A stretch of 9,039 nt of DNA from an uncultured archaeon (GCA_964565725.1 CAZMGA010000011.1:12842-21880); one strand, 5' to 3'. Shown: positions 1,574 to 9,039, counted from the first letter of the stretch. Program-made: numbers and translations. The notes: a model not told the origin generated them from the letters alone.

Positions 1574-3415
1574 TTATTTCACTTCATTTATTTTTTTTTC
1601 TAAGTATTGAGATAATTGTTTCATATCTGGTTTTATTTTATTTTCTGTTAATGTTTTCATTATTGTTCCAAACATTGCATTAATTGGTGAATGATGGTTT
1701 TTAATAAAGTCTTTATTTTCTTTTAAAATATTATCTATTATTTTTTTACTATTTTCATCTAATTCTGACTTTTGTAATGTGTTTAAAATTTCTTCTTTTG
1801 TTTTTCCAGATTCAAAATCTTTTATAGCTTTAGAAAAATCCTTTCTTGTTATTTTTTTTTCTTTTTCAGCATTTAATATCCATAAATATTTATTTAAATT
1901 TACTTTTTCTGGTAAAGCCATAAAAAAATCTGCTAAGCTTAAAGGATTATATTTTTCAATATATTTTGTAAATTGTTTTGCATAATTAGTTTGAGATATA
2001 TGCTCTGATATTTGTTGATTTAATCCATATTTTTTATAAATTTCAATTCTTTCATTATACCATAAAGGTAAATTATTTTTAATATCTAAAACTTCTTTTT
2101 TAGTAATATATCTTAAAGGTGTATCTGTTTCGGGATACATTCTTTCTGATCCTGCTAAAGGTCTAGAATATTCGGTTGTACCATCATTTAAAGGGTTTCT
2201 TGTTTCTTTTATTACACCTTCAAATAATTTTAATGCTCTTTCAAAAGCAATTTTTAATGCTCTTTCCGCTTCTTTTTGTTCTTCTATAACTATTACAAAT
2301 AAATCATTTTCATTTGCATTTAATTTTTTATTAATTTCTTTTATATTATCTAAAGTAAAGCCATATTTTGGTAATTCATCTGTATGGAATAGTCCTTTTG
2401 CTTTAGTTTGAACTTTTACATATCCTGATATTTCTGAACCTACTCTTTTTCCAGGCATAGTTTCTTTACCAAATAATCCTTTATAACCTTTTAATAATAT
2501 TGCTAATGCCTTTTGATTTTTTTTAATTGCTTCTTTTAATTTTTCATTTTCTGTTTTTAATATTATATCTGAAACATCATATATTTTAAATTCTTGATTT
2601 TTATCTACATTTTTATTTAAATAATTTTTAACTTCTATTAATGCTAATTGTCTTTTAACTTCATTTTCTACATATGTTTCAATTAAATCTAAATATTGTA
2701 CACCTTTTATTTCTATTCTGGCTCCTTCTTTAATTGATATATTTACATCTTGTCTTATTGAGCCTAATCCTCTTTTTGCATTTCCTGTTATTCTAAATAA
2801 TTCCCCAATTTTTTTTGCACATTCTTTAACTTCTTCAGGTGTTTCTAAATCTGGTTTTGTAGTGAACTCAATTAAAGGAATTCCTAATCTTTCTAATGCA
2901 TATTCTACTTTATTATTTGTATTATTTATTATTTGAGATGCATCTTCTTCTAAACAGATACTTGCAATACCTATATTTTTATTATAAATATTTAAAAATC
3001 CATTTTGTGCAATTAAGGAAGTTCTTTGAAACCCAGAAGTATTTGATCCATCAATAACCATTTTTCTCATAATAAATACAGTATCAAAAATTTCTGAATT
3101 TGTTTTTAATGCAACTTCTAAAGTAGTTTTTAAAGCTTCTTCATTTATGTTTTGTGGAGGTTCTTCATCCAATTCAACTAAACAAATTTTATTCTTGTGT
3201 GCGTTATAAAAATAAGTTCTGCCTTTTTTATATTCTTGTAATGCTGTTTTATCAAATTCTCCTTTTTCTGAAGCTACAGGTCTTAATTTTCTATTAATTT
3301 CAAATTCCCCTAAATCCTCATATATTTCAGAGTTACAATTACAAAATAATTTTTTTGTATTTAATTGTTGATGGCATTCTAAACCCGCTTTAAACCCTAA
3401 TTCTTTATAATTCAT
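1574..3415 (-). CDS. gatE: Glu-tRNA(Gln) amidotransferase subunit E (archaeal GatE)
   Basis: 613-aa ORF. The N-terminus MNYKELGFKAGLECHQQLNTKKLFCNC..., the overall length and the GatB/E-type core plus helical C-terminal tail match GatE as I know it. SD-like GTGAT lies just upstream of the ATG on the minus strand. Confidence 0.92.
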   Translation of the reverse strand: MNYKELGFKAGLECHQQLNTKKLFCNCNSEIYEDLGEFEINRKLRPVASEKGEFDKTALQEYKKGRTYFYNAHKNKICLVELDEEPPQNINEEALKTTLEVALKTNSEIFDTVFIMRKMVIDGSNTSGFQRTSLIAQNGFLNIYNKNIGIASICLEEDASQIINNTNNKVEYALERLGIPLIEFTTKPDLETPEEVKECAKKIGELFRITGNAKRGLGSIRQDVNISIKEGARIEIKGVQYLDLIETYVENEVKRQLALIEVKNYLNKNVDKNQEFKIYDVSDIILKTENEKLKEAIKKNQKALAILLKGYKGLFGKETMPGKRVGSEISGYVKVQTKAKGLFHTDELPKYGFTLDNIKEINKKLNANENDLFVIVIEEQKEAERALKIAFERALKLFEGVIKETRNPLNDGTTEYSRPLAGSERMYPETDTPLRYITKKEVLDIKNNLPLWYNERIEIYKKYGLNQQISEHISQTNYAKQFTKYIEKYNPLSLADFFMALPEKVNLNKYLWILNAEKEKKITRKDFSKAIKDFESGKTKEEILNTLQKSELDENSKKIIDNILKENKDFIKNHHSPINAMFGTIMKTLTENKIKPDMKQLSQYLEKKINEVK

Positions 3416-3486
3416 TTAATCACTATACTAAATATTTATATATTATTATCATTTAACTTATATAAATATATCTTATGGGTGAAATT

Positions 3487-3753
3487 ATGGATAAAATTAA
3501 TTTGTCATATTTATTAATTGGAATAATATGTAGTTTATTTATTTTACTAATAATCGTGTTGATTATTTACTTTGTAAAAGTTTATAATTATAACAAAAAT
3601 AAGCCTAGGAGAAAATATTTAGTAAAAGATGAGGAAAAACACACTTGGCAAGGTTTTGAAACTCAAGATGAAGTAAAAGTAAAGTATAAGCCTAAAAAAT
3701 ATAAAGTTAGAGAATATGAAGTTAAATCTCCTAAATATAAAGGTAGTAAATAA
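3487..3753 (+). CDS. small membrane protein, one N-terminal TM helix and a Lys/Tyr-rich tail (88 aa from the second ATG)
   Basis: The ORF track starts at 3475, but GGGTGA (3477-3482) is an SD-like motif 4 nt before the ATG at 3487. MDKINLSYLLIGIICSLFILLIIVLIIYFV is a clear TM segment. The tail is KVKYKPKKYKVREYEVKSPKYKGSK. This ORF fills an otherwise 340-nt gap between gatE and the HAD gene. Confidence 0.5.
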   Translation: MDKINLSYLLIGIICSLFILLIIVLIIYFVKVYNYNKNKPRRKYLVKDEEKHTWQGFETQDEVKVKYKPKKYKVREYEVKSPKYKGSK

Positions 3754-4365
3754 TTACTTTTTTAGATATTTTTCCAATTGTTTAAAAGAAGTAATTCTTT
3801 CTTTTACATTTTTATATTCGTTTTTTCTATCTATTAATAATGCATTCATACCTGCGTTTTTTGCGCCTATATAATCATTTTCGTAATGATTCCCTATAAA
3901 TAAGATCTCATTAGGTTTTAGATTTAATTTTTTAATTGCCTTTTCAAATATTTTTTTATCTGGTTTTTTTAATTCTTCTTCATAGGAATAAATAACAAAA
4001 TCAAATATTTTTTTATATCCCCAATTGTTAATAATTTCTTTTGTAACAAATGAGCAATTACTTATTATTCCATATTTATAATCTTTCATTAATGGCAATA
4101 TATATTCGAAATCAGAGAATTCAACATAATTTGTTTTTGTATGTTTATTCATTAATATTTTTAGCTTTTTTAATTTCATAGCTCCGCAGGTTTGTTTAAA
4201 ATAATTATAAAATTCATCTAAATTAGTATTAGTTATCATTATTTTTTCAATAAAACTTTCACCCAGGTTTTGTTTAATAAACTTCATTAGGTTATCATGT
4301 GTTTTATTGCTTTTATTTCTCAATATAGTATCCCATATATCAAATACAATTGCTTTAATAACCAT
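3754..4365 (-). CDS. HAD-superfamily hydrolase (subfamily IA-like)
   Basis: N-terminal VFDIWDTIL (motif I-like), ISNCS (motif II Ser), a KPD lysine and FIGNHYENDYIGAKNAGM (acidic motif IV). The 203-aa size is typical. Confidence 0.85.
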   Translation of the reverse strand: MVIKAIVFDIWDTILRNKSNKTHDNLMKFIKQNLGESFIEKIMITNTNLDEFYNYFKQTCGAMKLKKLKILMNKHTKTNYVEFSDFEYILPLMKDYKYGIISNCSFVTKEIINNWGYKKIFDFVIYSYEEELKKPDKKIFEKAIKKLNLKPNEILFIGNHYENDYIGAKNAGMNALLIDRKNEYKNVKERITSFKQLEKYLKK

Positions 4366-4383
4366 AATATATATACTCTTTAA

Positions 4384-4497
4384 GATATAAAAATCTTTTT
4401 ATCACTTTTCAGTATAATTCAAATATTCCCTTTATTTAGTATAATAGCAATAAGTACTTTGTTTTGTGTATTGTTCAGAAAGAAGAATAAGATTTAA
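4384..4497 (+). repeat. module copy A: degenerate 'motif-TM-basic-stop' coding remnant (…IFLSLFSIIQIFPLFSIIAISTLFCVLFRKKNKI*)
   Basis: The core 4426-4497 aligns with copies B and C. The frame is open from 4384, but no ATG/GTG/TTG precedes the helix. Relative to B/C it has an 18-nt in-frame deletion and a 27-nt in-frame internal duplication (ttcagtataattcaaata / tttagtataatagcaata). The ancestral stop position is now AAG, with a 2-codon extension. Confidence 0.7.
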
Positions 4498-4539
4498 ATA
4501 AACTATAGTGCTATTTATATTATGATAAAAAGAATTTTT

Positions 4540-4580
4540 AACTAGTTTTCATTGACCCCTAAACACCTTAGGGACTAGTT
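4540..4580. other. two-tier hairpin (type I), followed by a T5 tract
   Basis: Outer stem aactagt (4540-4546) pairs with actagtt (4574-4580), 7 bp. Inner stem ccctaa (4557-4562) pairs with ttaggg (4568-4573), 6 bp, with a 5-nt loop. There is a 10-nt 5' bulge. GGCTTTTT lies at 4583-4590. It shares the arms GACCC(C)TAA ... CCTTA..GGACT with the hairpin at 6846-6913. Confidence 0.6.
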
Positions 4581-4636
4581 CAGGCTTTTTATACTATTTG
4601 TATGTCTGGCATTTTAACTTTAAAAGGAGAGTTAAT

Positions 4637-6166
4637 ATGTCGTTATTAATTATAAAGAATTTAAGTAAAGACTTTTCTCACAAAGTAATCTTTGAGAATG
4701 AGGAATTAATAATAAATGAAACTGATAAGATTGGTTTAATTGGTAAGAATGGCTCGGGTAAAACCACTTTAATAAATATCATCTTAGGTAAAGAATCATT
4801 TTTTGGTAATTTGCAAAAATTAGATTTAAAGATAAGTGTTTTAGAACAACAATCTTTAAATGCAAATCAAAAAGTAATTGATTTCTTAAATATAGATTTG
4901 TATTCTGATAATTCAGATTTAATATCTAAAGTTTTGGAATTATTTAATAAATTTGCATTAAGTTCAGAATTATTTGATCAAAATTTGTTAACTTTATCTG
5001 GTGGAGAAAAAACTAAATTAGCTTTAATAAAAATAATGCTTCAAGATCCAGATTTGTTAATATTGGATGAGCCCACAAATCATTTAGATTTTTTAGGTTT
5101 ATATATTTTACAAAAATTCTTAAAAGATTTTTCTAAAGCTTACATTTTAGTTTCCCACAATAGAGATTTTTTAGATAACAATACAAATAAAATTGTTGAA
5201 ATTGAAAATACTAAACTATTATCTTATGAAGGAAATTATTCTGAATTTAAAGAAAAAAAACAAAAAGAATTTGAACTTAAAATTGAATTATATGAAAATA
5301 ATTTAAAAGAGCACAAAAGATTAAAAAAAAGTGCAATCCAGAAATTAGAATGGTCTCAAAATAATTGTGCTATTAAGAAACCTAAACCACATGATAAATT
5401 AAGATTTCAATCTTATAATAGGTTAAATAAAGGTTATGATTTTAATGCAATAAATGCAAAAATAATATTTGACAGAGCTAATGCTATTGATTTGTCTAAG
5501 CCTTTTGAAGATACTGAAAGATTAAATATTGAAATTTTGCCATTTGAAAAAAGCTATAATGAAGTTTTGGTTTTGCAAAAAATTTCTAAAACAATTAATA
5601 AAGAATTGTTTAGCAATTTGAATTTAGAAATTAAAAGACTCGAAAAAGTTTTCATAGTAGGGAGAAATGGTTCTGGTAAGACAACTTTATTAAATATTAT
5701 TTGTGGCAAAGATAAAGATTTTTCTGGAAATTTAATTTTAGGTGAAAATGTAAATGTTGGTTATATTACTCAAGACAAATCTTTCTTGCATAAAGATTGC
5801 AATATTTTAGAATATTTATTAGAGCAACATAAAGATCTGGATGAATTTATTTTAAGAGATTATTTGGCTAAATTTTTATTTAAGGGTAATGATATAAACA
5901 AAAAGCTAAACATTCTTTCAGGGGGAGAAATAATGCGTTTAGATTTGTTAGATAAATTACTTTACAAATGTAATTTCTTAATTTTAGATGAGCCAACAAA
6001 TAATTTAGATATTGCCACTATTGAATTATTAGAACAAGCTTTAATAGATTTTCAAGGCACTATATTATGCATATCTCACGATAAGCAATTAATAAAAAAT
6101 GTTGCAACAATAGTTTACGAGTTAACTGAAAAAGGATTGAGGGCATTAAACAAAGAATTTATTTAA
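4637..6166 (+). CDS. ABC-F-type soluble twin-NBD ATPase
   Basis: Two complete NBDs: Walker A GKNGSGKT and GRNGSGKT; signatures LSGGEKTK and LSGGEIMR; Walker [13 protein letters not shown] and [12 protein letters not shown]; H-loops VSHNRDF and ISHDKQL. A Lys-rich helical interdomain linker is present and there is no TM domain. GGAGAG (4626-4631) precedes the ATG at 4637, so the track's 4598 start is probably too long. Confidence 0.9.
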
Positions 6167-6206
6167 TAACATTTTTATATTTGTATTGTAGTATTATGTT
6201 ATAGTT

Positions 6207-6839
6207 TTGGATACTTTTTCTAATGTAAAATATATTTTCATTGATGAAAGTGGTGATTTAGGGCAGTATGGTTCAGAATATTTTACTATAGTTGCATTAA
6301 CAACTAGTGATATTAAGAAAATAGGAAGAATAATAAAAAAAGTCAGACAACGAATAATGAAAAAGAAACTTAAGAATTTATCTGAAATTAAAGCTAATAA
6401 TTCAAACGAAATAATAAGAAAATATGTTTTAAATAGTTTAATTAATTGTAATTGTTTAATTTCTTCAATAGTGATTCCGAAATCAAAAATAAAACAAGAA
6501 TTATATGGCTCTAAAAATAAATTATATAATTATCTTTGTGGAGTTTTATTTAGTCATATTGATTTAAATGTTTCTTATTTAGAAATAATTATTGATAAAA
6601 AAGATAGTAATAAATTATTACGAGAGGACTTCAATCATTATATTTCAGAAAAAATAAAAGAGAAAGTAAAAATTAAATTTAGTATTACTCATTTAGATTC
6701 TCAAGCATCTAATGAGTTGCAAGTAGTTGATTTTGTTGCATGGGCAATAAATAGAAAATATTCTCATAAAGACGATACTTATTATAATATAATCGAGAAA
6801 CTAATTTGTAATAAAGATAAACAAGAAATTTGGAAATAA
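6207..6839 (+). CDS. DUF3800-family protein
   Basis: N-terminal YIFIDESGD and C-terminal ELQVVDFVAWAI are the two acidic motifs I associate with DUF3800. The only canonical start before the conserved N-terminus is TTG at 6207, with an in-frame TAG at 6189-6191. It lies 40 nt downstream of the ABC-F stop on the same strand. Confidence 0.78.
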   Translation: MDTFSNVKYIFIDESGDLGQYGSEYFTIVALTTSDIKKIGRIIKKVRQRIMKKKLKNLSEIKANNSNEIIRKYVLNSLINCNCLISSIVIPKSKIKQELYGSKNKLYNYLCGVLFSHIDLNVSYLEIIIDKKDSNKLLREDFNHYISEKIKEKVKIKFSITHLDSQASNELQVVDFVAWAINRKYSHKDDTYYNIIEKLICNKDKQEIWK

Positions 6840-6845
6840 GAATAA

Positions 6846-6913
6846 GTGTGGACCCTAAGCAAGACCAATTCGTGCACCATCCGGTACACTCCTTACTAAG
6901 GACTTACCCACAT
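6846..6913. other. long imperfect three-tier hairpin (type I, expanded), relatively GC-rich
   Basis: Basal stem 6847-6851 pairs with 6908-6912 (tgtgg/ccaca). Middle stem 6853-6863 pairs with 6892-6901 (9 pairs, 2 C/A mismatches, 1 bulged A). Apical stem 6872-6878 pairs with 6883-6889 (6 pairs, 1 C/A mismatch), loop atcc. It starts 7 nt after the DUF3800 stop. Confidence 0.6.
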
Positions 6914-6975
6914 ATATAATTATATCTATGATATATAAATATTTTTTGATAATTATTTATAAAGATTAAACATAA

Positions 6976-7059
6976 TCCCCATTCTGGATAGTATTCTCAT
7001 CATTAGGAATAATTGCAGTAAGCACTGGGTTTTGTGTGTTGTTGAGAAAGAGAAATTAG
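6976..7059 (+). repeat. module copy B: 'motif-TM-basic-stop' coding remnant (SPFWIVFSSLGIIAVSTGFCVLLRKRN*) without a start codon
   Basis: About 78% nt identity to copy C over 27 codons by hand alignment. In-frame TAA at 6967-6969 and 6973-6975 lie immediately upstream, and no start codon is present. Stop TAG at 7057-7059. Confidence 0.75.
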
Positions 7060-7063
7060 ATTT

Positions 7064-7100
7064 TAGTATAATGGAAATTAGTATAACCACCATTATACTA
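7064..7100. other. perfect 11-bp-stem hairpin containing a direct repeat of TTAGTATAA
   Basis: tagtataatgg (7064-7074) pairs with ccattatacta (7090-7100), with a 15-nt loop. ttagtataa occurs at 7063-7071 and 7078-7086. agtataat also occurs twice inside module A (4411-4418, 4439-4446). Confidence 0.6.
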
Positions 7101-7115
7101 ATTCTGGTTATAATG

Positions 7116-7179
7116 AATTTGTCCGGAAAAAGCGGACAAAATGTGTCAATATTGTCCGGAAAAAACGGAAGAAATTTCC
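7116..7179. other. hairpin (type II) plus a degenerate direct copy
   Basis: tttgtccg (7118-7125) pairs with cggacaaa (7133-7140), 8 bp, loop gaaaaag. The 20-nt direct repeat ttgtccggaaaaagcggaca (7119-7138) versus ttgtccggaaaaaacggaag (7152-7171) matches at 17/20. A small ggaa/ttcc hairpin lies at 7167-7179. The right arm GACAAAATGT recurs at 8634-8643 and 8666-8675. Confidence 0.6.
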
Positions 7180-7190
7180 TTTGTATGTAG

Positions 7191-7245
7191 ATTCCTTACG
7201 GAATTCCGTAAAGAATACTATGATTTTCTTACGTAAAAGCGTAAG
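7191..7245. promoter_or_regulatory. two CTTACG-type inverted repeats immediately upstream of a TATA-like box
   Basis: A 26-bp palindrome attccttacggaattccgtaaagaat (7191-7216) has a perfect 16-bp core at 7196-7211 and one C/A mismatch. A hairpin cttacg-taaaag-cgtaag lies at 7228-7245. TATATATAT at 7247-7255 is centred about 27 nt before the ATG at 7278, suggesting a leaderless mRNA. Confidence 0.45.
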
Positions 7246-7277
7246 GTATATATATTTCTTATAATACTAATTATAAT

Positions 7278-8579
7278 ATGCCCAATATAAAAGATGACAT
7301 TAAGAAAATAATTTTAAAATATTCTGATTTGATTCCAAAGGAAGTTTTTAAAAGAGAATTAATATTGTCAGAATTAAAATTTGATAAGGCAAACGTAATA
7401 ATTGGGCCAAGAAGATCTGGTAAAACCTATTATTTATATTATATTATAAATGATATTAAATCAAATGAAAAGTTTATATATATTAATTTTGAAGATAATT
7501 TATTACCAAAACTTGAAAGACAAGATCTAAATTTGATATTAGAATGTTCAAAAGAATTATATGGCAATAATTTGATATTTTTCTTTGATGAAATTCAGAA
7601 TATCGATAATTGGGAAAATTTTATAATTTCATTATTAAATGAACATTATAAGGTATATGTTACAGGCTCAAATTCAAAATTGTTAAGTAAAGATATTGCA
7701 ACAGCTTTAAGAGGAAAATCATTATCTTATTTACTTTTGCCTTTTTCTTTTTCTGAAATAATATCTTATAAATTAGGAAAATTAGAAAAAGGTTGGGAAA
7801 ATAGCAAAACAGCATATGATATTAAGAAAGTATATAATGATTATTTTTTGTATGGTGGATTTCCAGAAGTATTTTTGTCTGAGAATTTAGATTTAAAAAA
7901 CAAATTAATAAATAATTATTTTGAATCGGTTTTGTATAAAGATTTGATTGATAGATTGAAGATAAAAAACATTAAATTAGTTGAAATAATTATGAAATAT
8001 TTATTAAATTTATTTGGCAATAATTTTAGTATATCTGTTTTTGAGAATTATTTAAAGTCAAATAAGATAGCTTATAGTTTAGAAGATTTATATGCCATAT
8101 TATATAGTTTACAAGATGTATTTTTAGTTTATTATTTAAAAGAATATTCTAAATCTTATAAAAAAACAGAGGTATCAAAATCAAAAATATATTTATTTGA
8201 TTTGGGGTATATTAGATTTATTTCTAGAGAATCAGAAGATAATGGCAGAATATTGGAAAATTTAGTATTTATTGAATTGTATAGGCGTTTAGATTGTATT
8301 AATGTTCCAAAAGTATTTTATTTTAAATCTAAGAAAGATCAAGAATGTGACTTTGTTTTAGAAGATAAAGGCAAGATTGTTCAGGCAATTCAAGTGACCT
8401 ATAGTTTAGAAACTAAAAATAAAGATAGAGAAATAGATGGTTTATTGTCTGCAATGGAGTTTTTTAGTTTAAAAGAAGGTATAATCTTAACAAATGATCA
8501 AGAAGAAACTTTTGAGATAAATAACAAGACAATACATGTTTTACCTGTTTGGAAATGGTTATTACAAACTAAGAAGTAA
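7278..8579 (+). CDS. AAA+ ATPase of the AAA_14/DUF4143 (COG1373-like) family with a C-terminal PD-(D/E)xK-like module
   Basis: Walker A GPRRSGKT, Walker B IFFFDEIQ and a DUF4143-like middle region. The C-terminal ENLVFIELYR...QECDFVLEDKGKIVQAIQVTYS resembles the restriction-endonuclease-like E-x-D...(I/V)Q/EVK tail typical of this family. Confidence 0.87.
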   Translation: MPNIKDDIKKIILKYSDLIPKEVFKRELILSELKFDKANVIIGPRRSGKTYYLYYIINDIKSNEKFIYINFEDNLLPKLERQDLNLILECSKELYGNNLIFFFDEIQNIDNWENFIISLLNEHYKVYVTGSNSKLLSKDIATALRGKSLSYLLLPFSFSEIISYKLGKLEKGWENSKTAYDIKKVYNDYFLYGGFPEVFLSENLDLKNKLINNYFESVLYKDLIDRLKIKNIKLVEIIMKYLLNLFGNNFSISVFENYLKSNKIAYSLEDLYAILYSLQDVFLVYYLKEYSKSYKKTEVSKSKIYLFDLGYIRFISRESEDNGRILENLVFIELYRRLDCINVPKVFYFKSKKDQECDFVLEDKGKIVQAIQVTYSLETKNKDREIDGLLSAMEFFSLKEGIILTNDQEETFEINNKTIHVLPVWKWLLQTKK

Positions 8580-8584
8580 TTTCT

Positions 8585-8600
8585 GGGCTTTTTCCTTTTT
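8585..8600 (+). terminator. oligo-T tracts after the ATPase gene (archaeal-style terminator candidate)
   Basis: gggcTTTTTccTTTTT begins 6 nt after the stop. It is similar to caggcTTTTT at 4581-4590. Confidence 0.4.
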
Positions 8601-8614
8601 CTTCACAACTTCTT

Positions 8615-8675
8615 GCATTTCGTTCAATAATTGAACAAAATGTCCTACATTTCGTCTAATCTTTAGACAAAATGT
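8615..8675. other. two tandem 12-bp-stem hairpins (type II) able to refold into a central alternative hairpin
   Basis: Segments are 1 = 8616-8627, 2 = 8631-8642, 3 = 8647-8658 and 4 = 8664-8675. Pairings 1:2 and 3:4 each give 11 Watson-Crick pairs plus one C/A mismatch at the same position (8621/8637 and 8653/8669). Segments 2:3 can pair instead (aaatgt-cct-acattt plus 2 more pairs). Confidence 0.65.
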
Positions 8676-8764
8676 ACTGCAACCCTTTCTGGATAGTTAG
8701 TGCATCAATATTAATAATTGCAGTGAGTATTGGATTTTGTGTGTTGTTAAGGAAAAGAGATTAA
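8672..8764 (+). CDS. module copy C: intact 30-aa ORF MYCNPFWIVSASILIIAVSIGFCVLLRKRD (small single-TM peptide)
   Basis: ATG at 8672-8674, TAA at 8762-8764 (hand indexed). Divergence from copy B is biased to third codon positions, which argues that this frame is or was translated. There is no SD. The ATG lies inside hairpin segment 4. Confidence 0.45.
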   Translation: MYCNPFWIVSASILIIAVSIGFCVLLRKRD

Positions 8765-8806
8765 TCCTATTTAAACTTTTTCGTTCTACATATTATTAGT
8801 GAGTTT

Positions 8807-9039
8807 ATGGAAGATAAATTTAATTTTGATTTAAAGCCAATAGTAAAGGAATACGAAAAGTTTTTCGGTTTTAAATTAAATAAGCAACCTAAGTCTATAT
8901 TTTGTTATAATAGAAAAGAATATGATAAACTATTTGGTTGCAAAACACAATCTTGGAGTGCACAATTTGCTACTAAAGATATGATTGTAAGTATTCATCC
9001 TACTTTATGGGAAAAATATACAAATCATGCAAATCCTTC
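8807..9039 (+). CDS. hypothetical protein, N-terminal 77 codons (3' end outside window)
   Basis: From the ATG at 8807 the frame stays open to the window end: MEDKFNFDLKPIVKEYEKFFGFKLNKQPKSIFCYNRKEYDKLFGCKTQSWSAQFATKDMIVSIHPTLWEKYTNHANP. TATA-like CTATTTAAAC at 8767-8776 lies about 30 nt upstream. No family recognised. Confidence 0.55.
   Translation, partial: MEDKFNFDLKPIVKEYEKFFGFKLNKQPKSIFCYNRKEYDKLFGCKTQSWSAQFATKDMIVSIHPTLWEKYTNHANP

Follow-up and report, generated by a model that had tools for sequence, protein, structure and literature searches.

A stretch of 9,039 nucleotides from an uncultured archaeon (GCA_964565725.1, CAZMGA010000011.1:12842-21880; hereafter the window) contains, in its second half, an array in which three copies of a short module, A, B, and C, alternate with cargo genes. 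The first-pass annotation, made from the sequence alone, described this order correctly and proposed that the cargo is bounded by hairpins; as an alternative, it suggested that each module is a duplicate of the 3' end of a gene used as an integration target, and that the modules mark off successive insertions. We found that the array is punctuated by the modules, not by the hairpins, and that the alternative was well founded: the target is a gene encoding a transporter of the SSF family (PF00474), and presence/absence polymorphism of the intervening DNA was found among relatives. The array is probably a small genomic island that was built by repeated insertion of blocks at the 3' end of the SSF gene, an accretion resembling that of cis-mobilizable elements (CIMEs), and that was later orphaned and reshuffled by recombination. 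Islands of this kind are known; what is new here is the host, a DPANN archaeon, and the target gene.

The modules are the top direct-repeat family of the window (4410-4490, 6978-7058, and 8683-8763; 67-79% identity). All three lie on the plus strand and share one reading frame, which specifies a hydrophobic helix, basic residues, and a stop (marked by an asterisk here and below), with the consensus ...PFWIV(F/S)(S/A)S..IIAVS.GFCVLLRKR(N/D)*. The core TTCTGGATAGT is present in module B (6982-6992) and module C (8687-8697), two occurrences in the window where 0.15 would be expected. Module A (4405-4497), the most decayed fragment, ends in ...IFPLFSIIAISTLFCVLFRKKNKI* and has a type-1-like tail; its PFWIV... 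segment is missing, and a further remnant lies upstream at 4384-4404. Module B (6949-7059) reads IIIYKD*T*SPFWIVFSSLGIIAVSTGFCVLLRKRN*, a pseudogene fragment whose tail is of type 1, and module C (8675-8764) reads CNPFWIVSASILIIAVSIGFCVLLRKRD* and has a type-2 tail like that of the orphan copies on the related contigs L005 and L002. A protein search with the 47-aa module peptide as the query gave no match. However, in tblastn comparisons every module matched the C termini of SSF-family proteins with E values of 1e-8 to 1e-15 (the match of module A was listed at about 2e-5), and alignment confirmed that the homology covers the last transmembrane helix and the basic tail of the family. The homology of module B to the SSF protein of L005 (E value of 7.7e-13, with in-frame stops) continues upstream across two in-frame stops, where IIIYKD*T*SPFW aligns with LFIYGNIINNPFW. 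Modules A and B have no ATG, GTG, or TTG start; only module C has a start codon, an ATG borrowed from the adjacent hairpin IIc, which creates a fortuitous 30-aa open reading frame (ORF) at 8672-8764. Because the homology crosses in-frame stops and two of the modules lack a start codon, the modules are gene-end fragments rather than genes. Judged by homology, they have been shown to be 3'-end fragments of an SSF-family symporter gene, comprising its last transmembrane helix, basic tail, and stop.

A search of GTDB genomes with a degenerate module DNA pattern yielded a single match, in L005, a Candidatus Diapherotrites metagenome-assembled genome (MAG); the same pattern had no match in JGI metagenomes or IMG/VR. 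In L005, the module sequence forms the natural terminus of a complete SSF-family transporter gene, which ends in NNPFWIVFSSLGIIGVSTLFCILLRKRN*. This gene is followed by an Lrp-like regulator, a B12/radical-SAM gene, and then an orphan copy of the gene end, NIINNPFWIVGASVGIIAVSTGFCVLLRKRD*; the gene end and the orphan copy form a 104-nt direct repeat with 76% identity. Copies of the target gene 3' end thus flank each unit as direct repeats in the window (modules A-C), in L002 (a perfect repeat of at least 55 nt), and in L005 (104 nt). The intact target gene stands at the end of the array in L005, whereas in the window and in the related contig L001 module A abuts a HAD hydrolase gene instead. 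The C-terminal helix is kept in all of the best 120 SSF homologs, which come from DPANN archaea and bacteria of the candidate phyla radiation (CPR).

The differences between copies are mainly synonymous: 8 synonymous and 1 nonsynonymous between module B and the copy L002b, and 10 synonymous and 3 nonsynonymous between module B and the SSF gene of L005. Therefore, the copies diverged under selection at the protein level, each serving as the functional end of a gene in a different genome or element. The type-2 tail (..AAGGAAAAGAGATTAA) is common to the rightmost module of each array (module C in the window, L002b, and the L005 orphan), and gene-proximal copies carry type-1 tails; this pattern would be predicted if the original end of the gene had been displaced to become the rightmost copy. 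Immediately past the stop codon of module C lies the TATA-like sequence ATTTAAAC; TATA-like ATTTAAA(T/C) was likewise observed directly past the stops of module A (4500-4512), module C (8768-8776), and the second L002 module (2068-2078). To judge by these motifs, the gene-end fragment seems to carry a promoter for the downstream DNA.

Two cargo blocks lie between the modules, all of their genes on the plus strand. The first consists of an ABC-F type ATPase gene (4637-6166; two ABC_tran domains and a linker, Pfam ABC_tran E value of 8.5e-41, ABC_tran_Xtn) and a gene for a DUF3800 protein (6207-6839; PF12686, E value of 4.3e-16). The second is a gene for an AAA+ ATPase with AAA_14 and DUF4143 domains (7278-8579; E values of 4.7e-33 and 1.1e-18). 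Related contigs from several samples, retrieved by exact-protein look-ups, show these blocks in different combinations. Contig L003 lacks the 2.6-kb ABC-F/DUF3800 block: its HAD side (window 4340-4403) is followed by 59 nt of an SSF remnant that is longer and more decayed, and then directly by module B from position 6988 and the AAA+ gene. The ABC-F/DUF3800 block is found, with the same DUF3800 protein, as a separate graph node in the 2.6-kb contig L025, which spans window positions 4382-7017 exactly, and contig L004 contains the AAA+ block alone (window 6988-8669). Core-side contigs retrieved with gatE, HAD, and DUF2666 all end at 4369-4393. Overall, contigs break at 4369-4403, 6988, and 8669, positions that are assembly-graph branch points. 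The variant with the ABC-F/DUF3800 block was assembled from SRR27197504 and the variant without it from SRR16642441; the contig breaks suggest that both coexist in SRR27197504. The boundaries of this polymorphism are at 6988, inside module B, on the right, and at 4403, upstream of the module A core, on the left.

The identical AAA+ protein was found on four contigs with different flanks. In L001, core genes (gatE, HAD, and others) are 81-91% identical to those of the window, but 4367-5269 is approximately 100% identical and 6997-8582 is 100% identical, and the latter tract begins inside module B (6997). In L002, an additional 100-aa gene follows the AAA+ gene, and the whole unit lies between the perfect direct module repeats, beyond which the tails differ, much as attL and attR would look. 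Thus, populations are polymorphic for blocks of the array, and diverged lineages share blocks at 100% identity. Among AAA+ relatives in JGI metagenomes, none of the seven loci is flanked by modules, which makes it less likely that the module is carried by the AAA+ gene itself.

These observations can be combined into the following scheme. An incoming block would bring a copy of the terminal 100-130 bp of the SSF gene with it; recombination inside this gene-end copy would insert the block, supply the gene with a new end, and shift the old end downstream. Repeated insertions would leave a row of gene-end fragments (A, B, and C) with cargo between them. The insertions may have been carried out by a site-specific recombinase that acted in trans or has since been lost. 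In the lineage of the window, the body of the transporter gene would later have been deleted, leaving an orphan array beside the HAD gene, and present-day exchange may proceed largely by homologous recombination, with the modules and neighboring cassettes providing the homology.

Several findings weigh against this scheme. No transporter gene is attached to the leftmost module, and the window lineage yielded no intact SSF gene. No orphan ends were found at the more distant SSF loci of L006, L008, and L021-L023; orphan modules were found only in L005 and the window lineage. The ABC-F/DUF3800 polymorphism is no conservative insertion into the allele of L003 but a replacement of 59 nt (L003) by 2584 nt (window); on its left side, the breakpoint (4403, or 4366 relative to L001) lies outside the module core, and the breakpoints vary (4366, 4403, 6988, and 6997). 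As the first-pass annotation noted, the window encodes no transposase or integrase: Pfam searches of the window ORFs revealed no recombinase, Y1/HUH, TnpA/TnpB, or integrase domains, and no integrase or other recombinase was found in any variable region of the related contigs examined. No extrachromosomal or viral contig with a module was detected in IMG/VR or among GenBank phages; module and hairpin DNA had no match in the latter, and a profile of the SSF C terminus had no confirmed match in the former. Because the absent integrase, the replacement polymorphism, and the shifting breakpoints do not fit a simple active site-specific system, we infer a site-specific origin followed by largely homologous shuffling.

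A serious rival, although we regard it as unlikely, is that homologous recombination alone produced the array and that no site-specific recombinase ever took part: a circle formed by recombination between two modules would re-enter another module by a single RadA-dependent crossover of the Campbell type, the conserved gene end serving only as homology that travels with the block. The lack of a fixed breakpoint position and of an integrase in the DNA examined, together with the identity mosaic of L001, speaks for this model, as does the ABC-F/DUF3800 polymorphism, which amounts to allelic replacement between identical flanks. However, the model leaves the origin of the first gene-end duplication unexplained, the window copies, at 67-79% identity, are poor substrates for homologous recombination, and the perfect 55-nt repeat of L002 with its sharply different tails resembles an att core with different arms.

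A further, improbable possibility is that the module is a working docking site of a cassette platform in DPANN archaea that is still active and is served by an integrase in trans, with small cassettes that bear promoters and form circles by module-by-module recombination, type II hairpins as arm-type sites, and interspecies delivery of defense-like genes. In a circle formed between modules B and C, the module would sit between hairpins IIb/IIc on one side and IIa with its degenerate copy IIa' on the other; the point at which the window and L002 part, at the end of IIc, is in keeping with this layout, but that the type II pairs are accessory binding (arm) sites around an attP-like core is speculation. 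If true, this scenario would describe a functional archaeal counterpart of integron cassettes that is based on a gene fragment instead of attC.

The modules could also be static relics, that is, debris left by duplications, deletions, and rearrangements of a decaying SSF locus, with ordinary genes between them and nothing ever mobile. It is true that the transporter gene is dead at the window locus, that module A is badly decayed, and that other genes nearby are truncated, such as a CARDB gene cut to 92 aa. Nonetheless, we consider this explanation quite improbable, because the AAA+ block is unchanged (100% identity) in a lineage with 81-91% core identity, the ABC-F/DUF3800 block is present in some assemblies and absent from others (SRR27197504 and SRR16642441), and L005 has different cargo between the SSF gene and the orphan end. 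The mainly synonymous differences likewise indicate that different functional genes, and not a single copy in decay, gave rise to the module copies.

The first-pass annotation proposed instead that the hairpins are the recombination sites of a HUH/Y1 system similar to IS200/IS605 elements and their non-autonomous palindrome-associated transposable elements (PATEs), or of an attC-like cassette system, with the enzyme encoded elsewhere. To evaluate hairpins, we compared the DNA fold with that of shuffled sequence (z scores and counts of 200 shuffles) and the similarity between hairpins with that of 1000 shuffles. The hairpins are real in part. The type I hairpin at 4540-4580 (plus strand; outer stem AACTAGT/ACTAGTT, inner stem CCCTAA/TTAGGG), in the region upstream of the ABC-F gene, is modest (-7.1 kcal/mol, z of -2.65, 3 of 200 shuffles as good). 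Its presumed partner at 6846-6913 is a GC-rich 68-nt stretch with no significant hairpin (z of -1.06; 29 of 200 shuffles fold as well). The similarity of the two is at chance: the local score is 13 versus a shuffle mean of 13.1, and 501 of 1000 shuffles reach it, so that type I fails the similarity test and is no family. The type II hairpins, all on the plus strand, fold well. Hairpin IIa (7117-7142, ATTTGTCCG..CGGACAAAAT) has a z score of -5.4; the degenerate copy at 7151-7175 is indeed similar to IIa in sequence (0 of 1000 shuffles) yet does not fold (z of 0.06). Hairpins IIb (8616-8642, z of -3.6) and IIc (8648-8674, z of -5.1), CATTTCGTTCAAtaaTTGAACAAAATG and CATTTCGTCTAAtctTTAGACAAAATG, form a tandem pair (8616-8674; z of -4.6 together) that passes the similarity test (0 of 1000 shuffles reach the score) and differs by two compensatory inner-stem changes, GTTCAA/TTGAAC versus GTCTAA/TTAGAC. 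IIa has in common with IIb and IIc only the 10-mer GACAAAATGT (2 of 1000 shuffles), which occurs at five sites with no more than one mismatch versus 1.06 expected.

The hairpin-site system would account for the presence of type II hairpins on both sides of the AAA+ gene, for the compensatory stem changes, and for the divergence of the window and L002 exactly at the 3' end of IIc (L004 stops at 8669). It is nevertheless already largely refuted, and its remaining probability is very small. The claim that each cargo is bracketed by its own hairpin family fails for the ABC-F/DUF3800 block and applies only loosely to the AAA+ block, through the shared 10-mer; given type I similarity at chance and weak type II sharing, the bracketing is not upheld although the architecture is real, and the units do not carry related subterminal hairpins at their two ends. 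Nor does an imperfect hairpin of 55-141 nt follow each cassette ORF: the stretch at 6846-6913 does not fold significantly, and the AAA+ gene is followed by two short perfect hairpins. A regex scan of both strands of the window found no attC box pair, R'' (RYYYAAC) and R' (GTTRRRY), 50-150 nt apart, and neither the window nor the related contigs have IntI with attI. Both hairpin families were sought in 157,730 nt of related loci, and no copies were found beyond the same AAA+ cassette. The shared AAA+ tract has its left edge in module B, 120 nt before IIa, and long direct repeats flank the block; IS200/IS605 elements are not known to make long flanking direct repeats. Finally, similar hairpins stand at ordinary promoters and gene ends.

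Three further inverted repeats within the array were missed by the first-pass annotation. Two CTTACG-N6-CGTAAG palindromes (7195-7213 and 7228-7245; z of -3.8) directly precede a TATA-like box and the start codon of the AAA+ gene, and they also occur immediately 5' of the TATA-like box of AAA_14 homologs in the unrelated metagenome contigs L014 (733-783) and L015 (771-788); their position suggests that they are operator-like elements of the AAA+ gene itself. An AT-rich inverted repeat, TAGTATAATGG / CCATTATACTA (7064-7101; local fold of -8.8 to -9.8 kcal/mol), lies directly past module B. Perfect hairpins with 3-nt loops are also found between ordinary genes of the same organism. Because the CTTACG palindromes recur at AAA_14 genes, hairpins occur in ordinary intergenic regions, attC boxes are lacking, and the families do not recur, most of the hairpins are likely gene-proximal regulatory or terminator-like palindromes, not cassette borders. 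In L002, a divergent promoter region beyond the array contains, at 2975-3035, the perfect hairpins AAGGTCGCAattTGCGACCTT and GTTCCAattTGGAAC, which lie side by side, have ATT loops, and show the same layout as IIb and IIc. L014 contains three tandem AAA_14 genes, each with the same hairpin upstream, GACAAGTTTGTtACAAACTTGGC (626-655, 2275-2305, and 3838-3870), and a tRNA-like sequence at 3590-3660.

Very improbable, too, is the notion that each module is a gene in its own right, encoding a small membrane peptide with a single pass that is kept for its function, since the supports of this notion, protein-level conservation and the ATG-initiated 30-aa ORF of module C, are outweighed by the lack of a start codon in modules A and B and in those of L003 and L002, by the matching ATG of L002b meeting a stop after three codons, and by the SSF homology that continues upstream across in-frame stops.

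The window is archaeal DNA with a G+C content of 22%. Outside the array, Pfam searches identified a CoA-ligase fragment, a DUF2666 gene, gatE (1574-3415, minus strand), and the HAD hydrolase gene (3754-4365, minus strand). The first gene past module C (8807-9039, plus strand) runs off the window; it has no Pfam match, its function is unassigned, and a homolog search found none. Rfam (E value of 1 or less) and tRNA scans of the whole window gave no match. A 31-aa CxxC ORF at 7141-7236 was rejected as spurious, as it has no Pfam match and is not kept upstream of AAA_14 homologs. Intergenic DNA inside the array (4498-4636, 6840-6948, 7060-7277, and 8580-8674) has a G+C content of 27-35% versus 21-23% in coding DNA, a reversal of the usual trend. 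A 560-nt segment between the DUF2666 gene and gatE (1025-1586), which contains two hairpins, the decayed remnant of a minus-strand gene, and a 54-aa Gly/Leu-rich ORF (1150-1314), is missing from L001 (2343->2352). The 92-aa ORF at 3475-3753 corresponds to the C-terminal membrane anchor and tail of a CARDB surface protein (42% identity, E value of 3e-14) that is intact in L001 (4309-6402, 697 aa); about 600 codons are gone in the window lineage, which makes this another gene of which just the 3' end survives.

The G+C content of the cargo equals that of the core genome; therefore, the donors appear to be similar organisms. The AAA_14/DUF4143 ATPase matches the PADLOC hidden Markov model PDC-S01 over its full length (E value of 7.9e-98, residues 22-431), and by this family match it is a candidate defense gene. 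In the same comparison with defense families, the ABC-F protein had only generic ABC-ATPase matches and the DUF3800 protein had none. The exact ABC-F product was not found among recorded proteins. A single base difference separates L025 from the window: C4755A (L025 position 374) changes a Ser codon of the first ABC-F Walker A motif to a stop, so that this cassette gene is pseudogenized in part of the population. In L008, an AAA_14/DUF4143 gene and a 1373-aa ORF (3474-8980) lie between two TrmB genes that are adjacent in L006 (8940-9009); the TrmB gene pair of L008 is a second insertion site for this ATPase family.

The 3' end of the SSF gene also varies in its surroundings elsewhere. In the Iainarchaeum MAGs L006 and L008, synteny is lost at the SSF stop codon and regained at PolD, with unrelated genes between the two points (3.1 kb versus 7.2 kb). 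The radical-SAM/regulator pair looks inverted between L005 and L008, but the proteins are not orthologs, and an inversion was therefore rejected. The SSF transporter is 60-66% identical between contigs labeled as DPANN (Woesearchaeota, 'ainarchaeum') and as CPR (Patescibacteria, Magasanikbacteria, Gracilibacteria, Peregrinibacteria), which suggests cross-domain transfer of the gene.

Little has been mapped of the mobile elements of DPANN archaea and of the paths by which genes move among them. This locus provides a concrete hotspot for insertion, located at the 3' end of an SSF gene that is widely conserved; here, kilobase blocks, including one candidate defense gene, are gained, lost, and shared at 100% identity across lineages with 81-91% core identity. 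The transporter-end motif is a searchable marker for islands in genomes of Iainarchaeia (Diapherotrites) and could lead to the missing recombinase.

Among known systems, IS200/IS605 elements and PATEs are similar to the array in having same-strand hairpins near both ends, as the AAA+ block does. On the other hand, the window has no TnpA or TnpB, its hairpins are not dispersed, long direct repeats flank the AAA+ block, and the shared tract starts in a module rather than at a hairpin. Integron cassette arrays and CALINs (clusters of attC sites lacking integron integrases) have been reported in Archaea too (PMC9668308). Like them, the array consists of small units, mostly of one or two genes, in one orientation, with a recurring site between them and, as in CALINs, no recombinase nearby. 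However, the recurring site here is a gene fragment rather than an attC hairpin, it has no R''/R' boxes, and promoters and operators belong to the cassettes themselves.

Archaeal and bacterial integrative elements at the 3' ends of tRNA genes carry a replacement 3' end in attP. Unlike these elements, the array has a protein-coding target, longer and more diverged repeats, and no integrase; what they have in common is that the incoming element supplies the functional gene end and the old end is displaced downstream, which explains why the displaced copies look selected.

The closest known systems are islands produced by tandem accretion, which leaves integrase-less, att-flanked units (CIMEs), for example, the ICESt1/ICESt3 islands of Streptococcus thermophilus at fda (PMC5704250). 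The array differs from these islands in its host, a DPANN archaeon instead of a Firmicute, its SSF target, its tiny units (1.7-2.6 kb), and the loss of the target gene body in the window, and no autonomous partner element or integrase was seen here. What it shares with them is the architecture itself: copies of the target 3' end as flanking repeats, units without an integrase, several such units in a row, and accessory genes as cargo.

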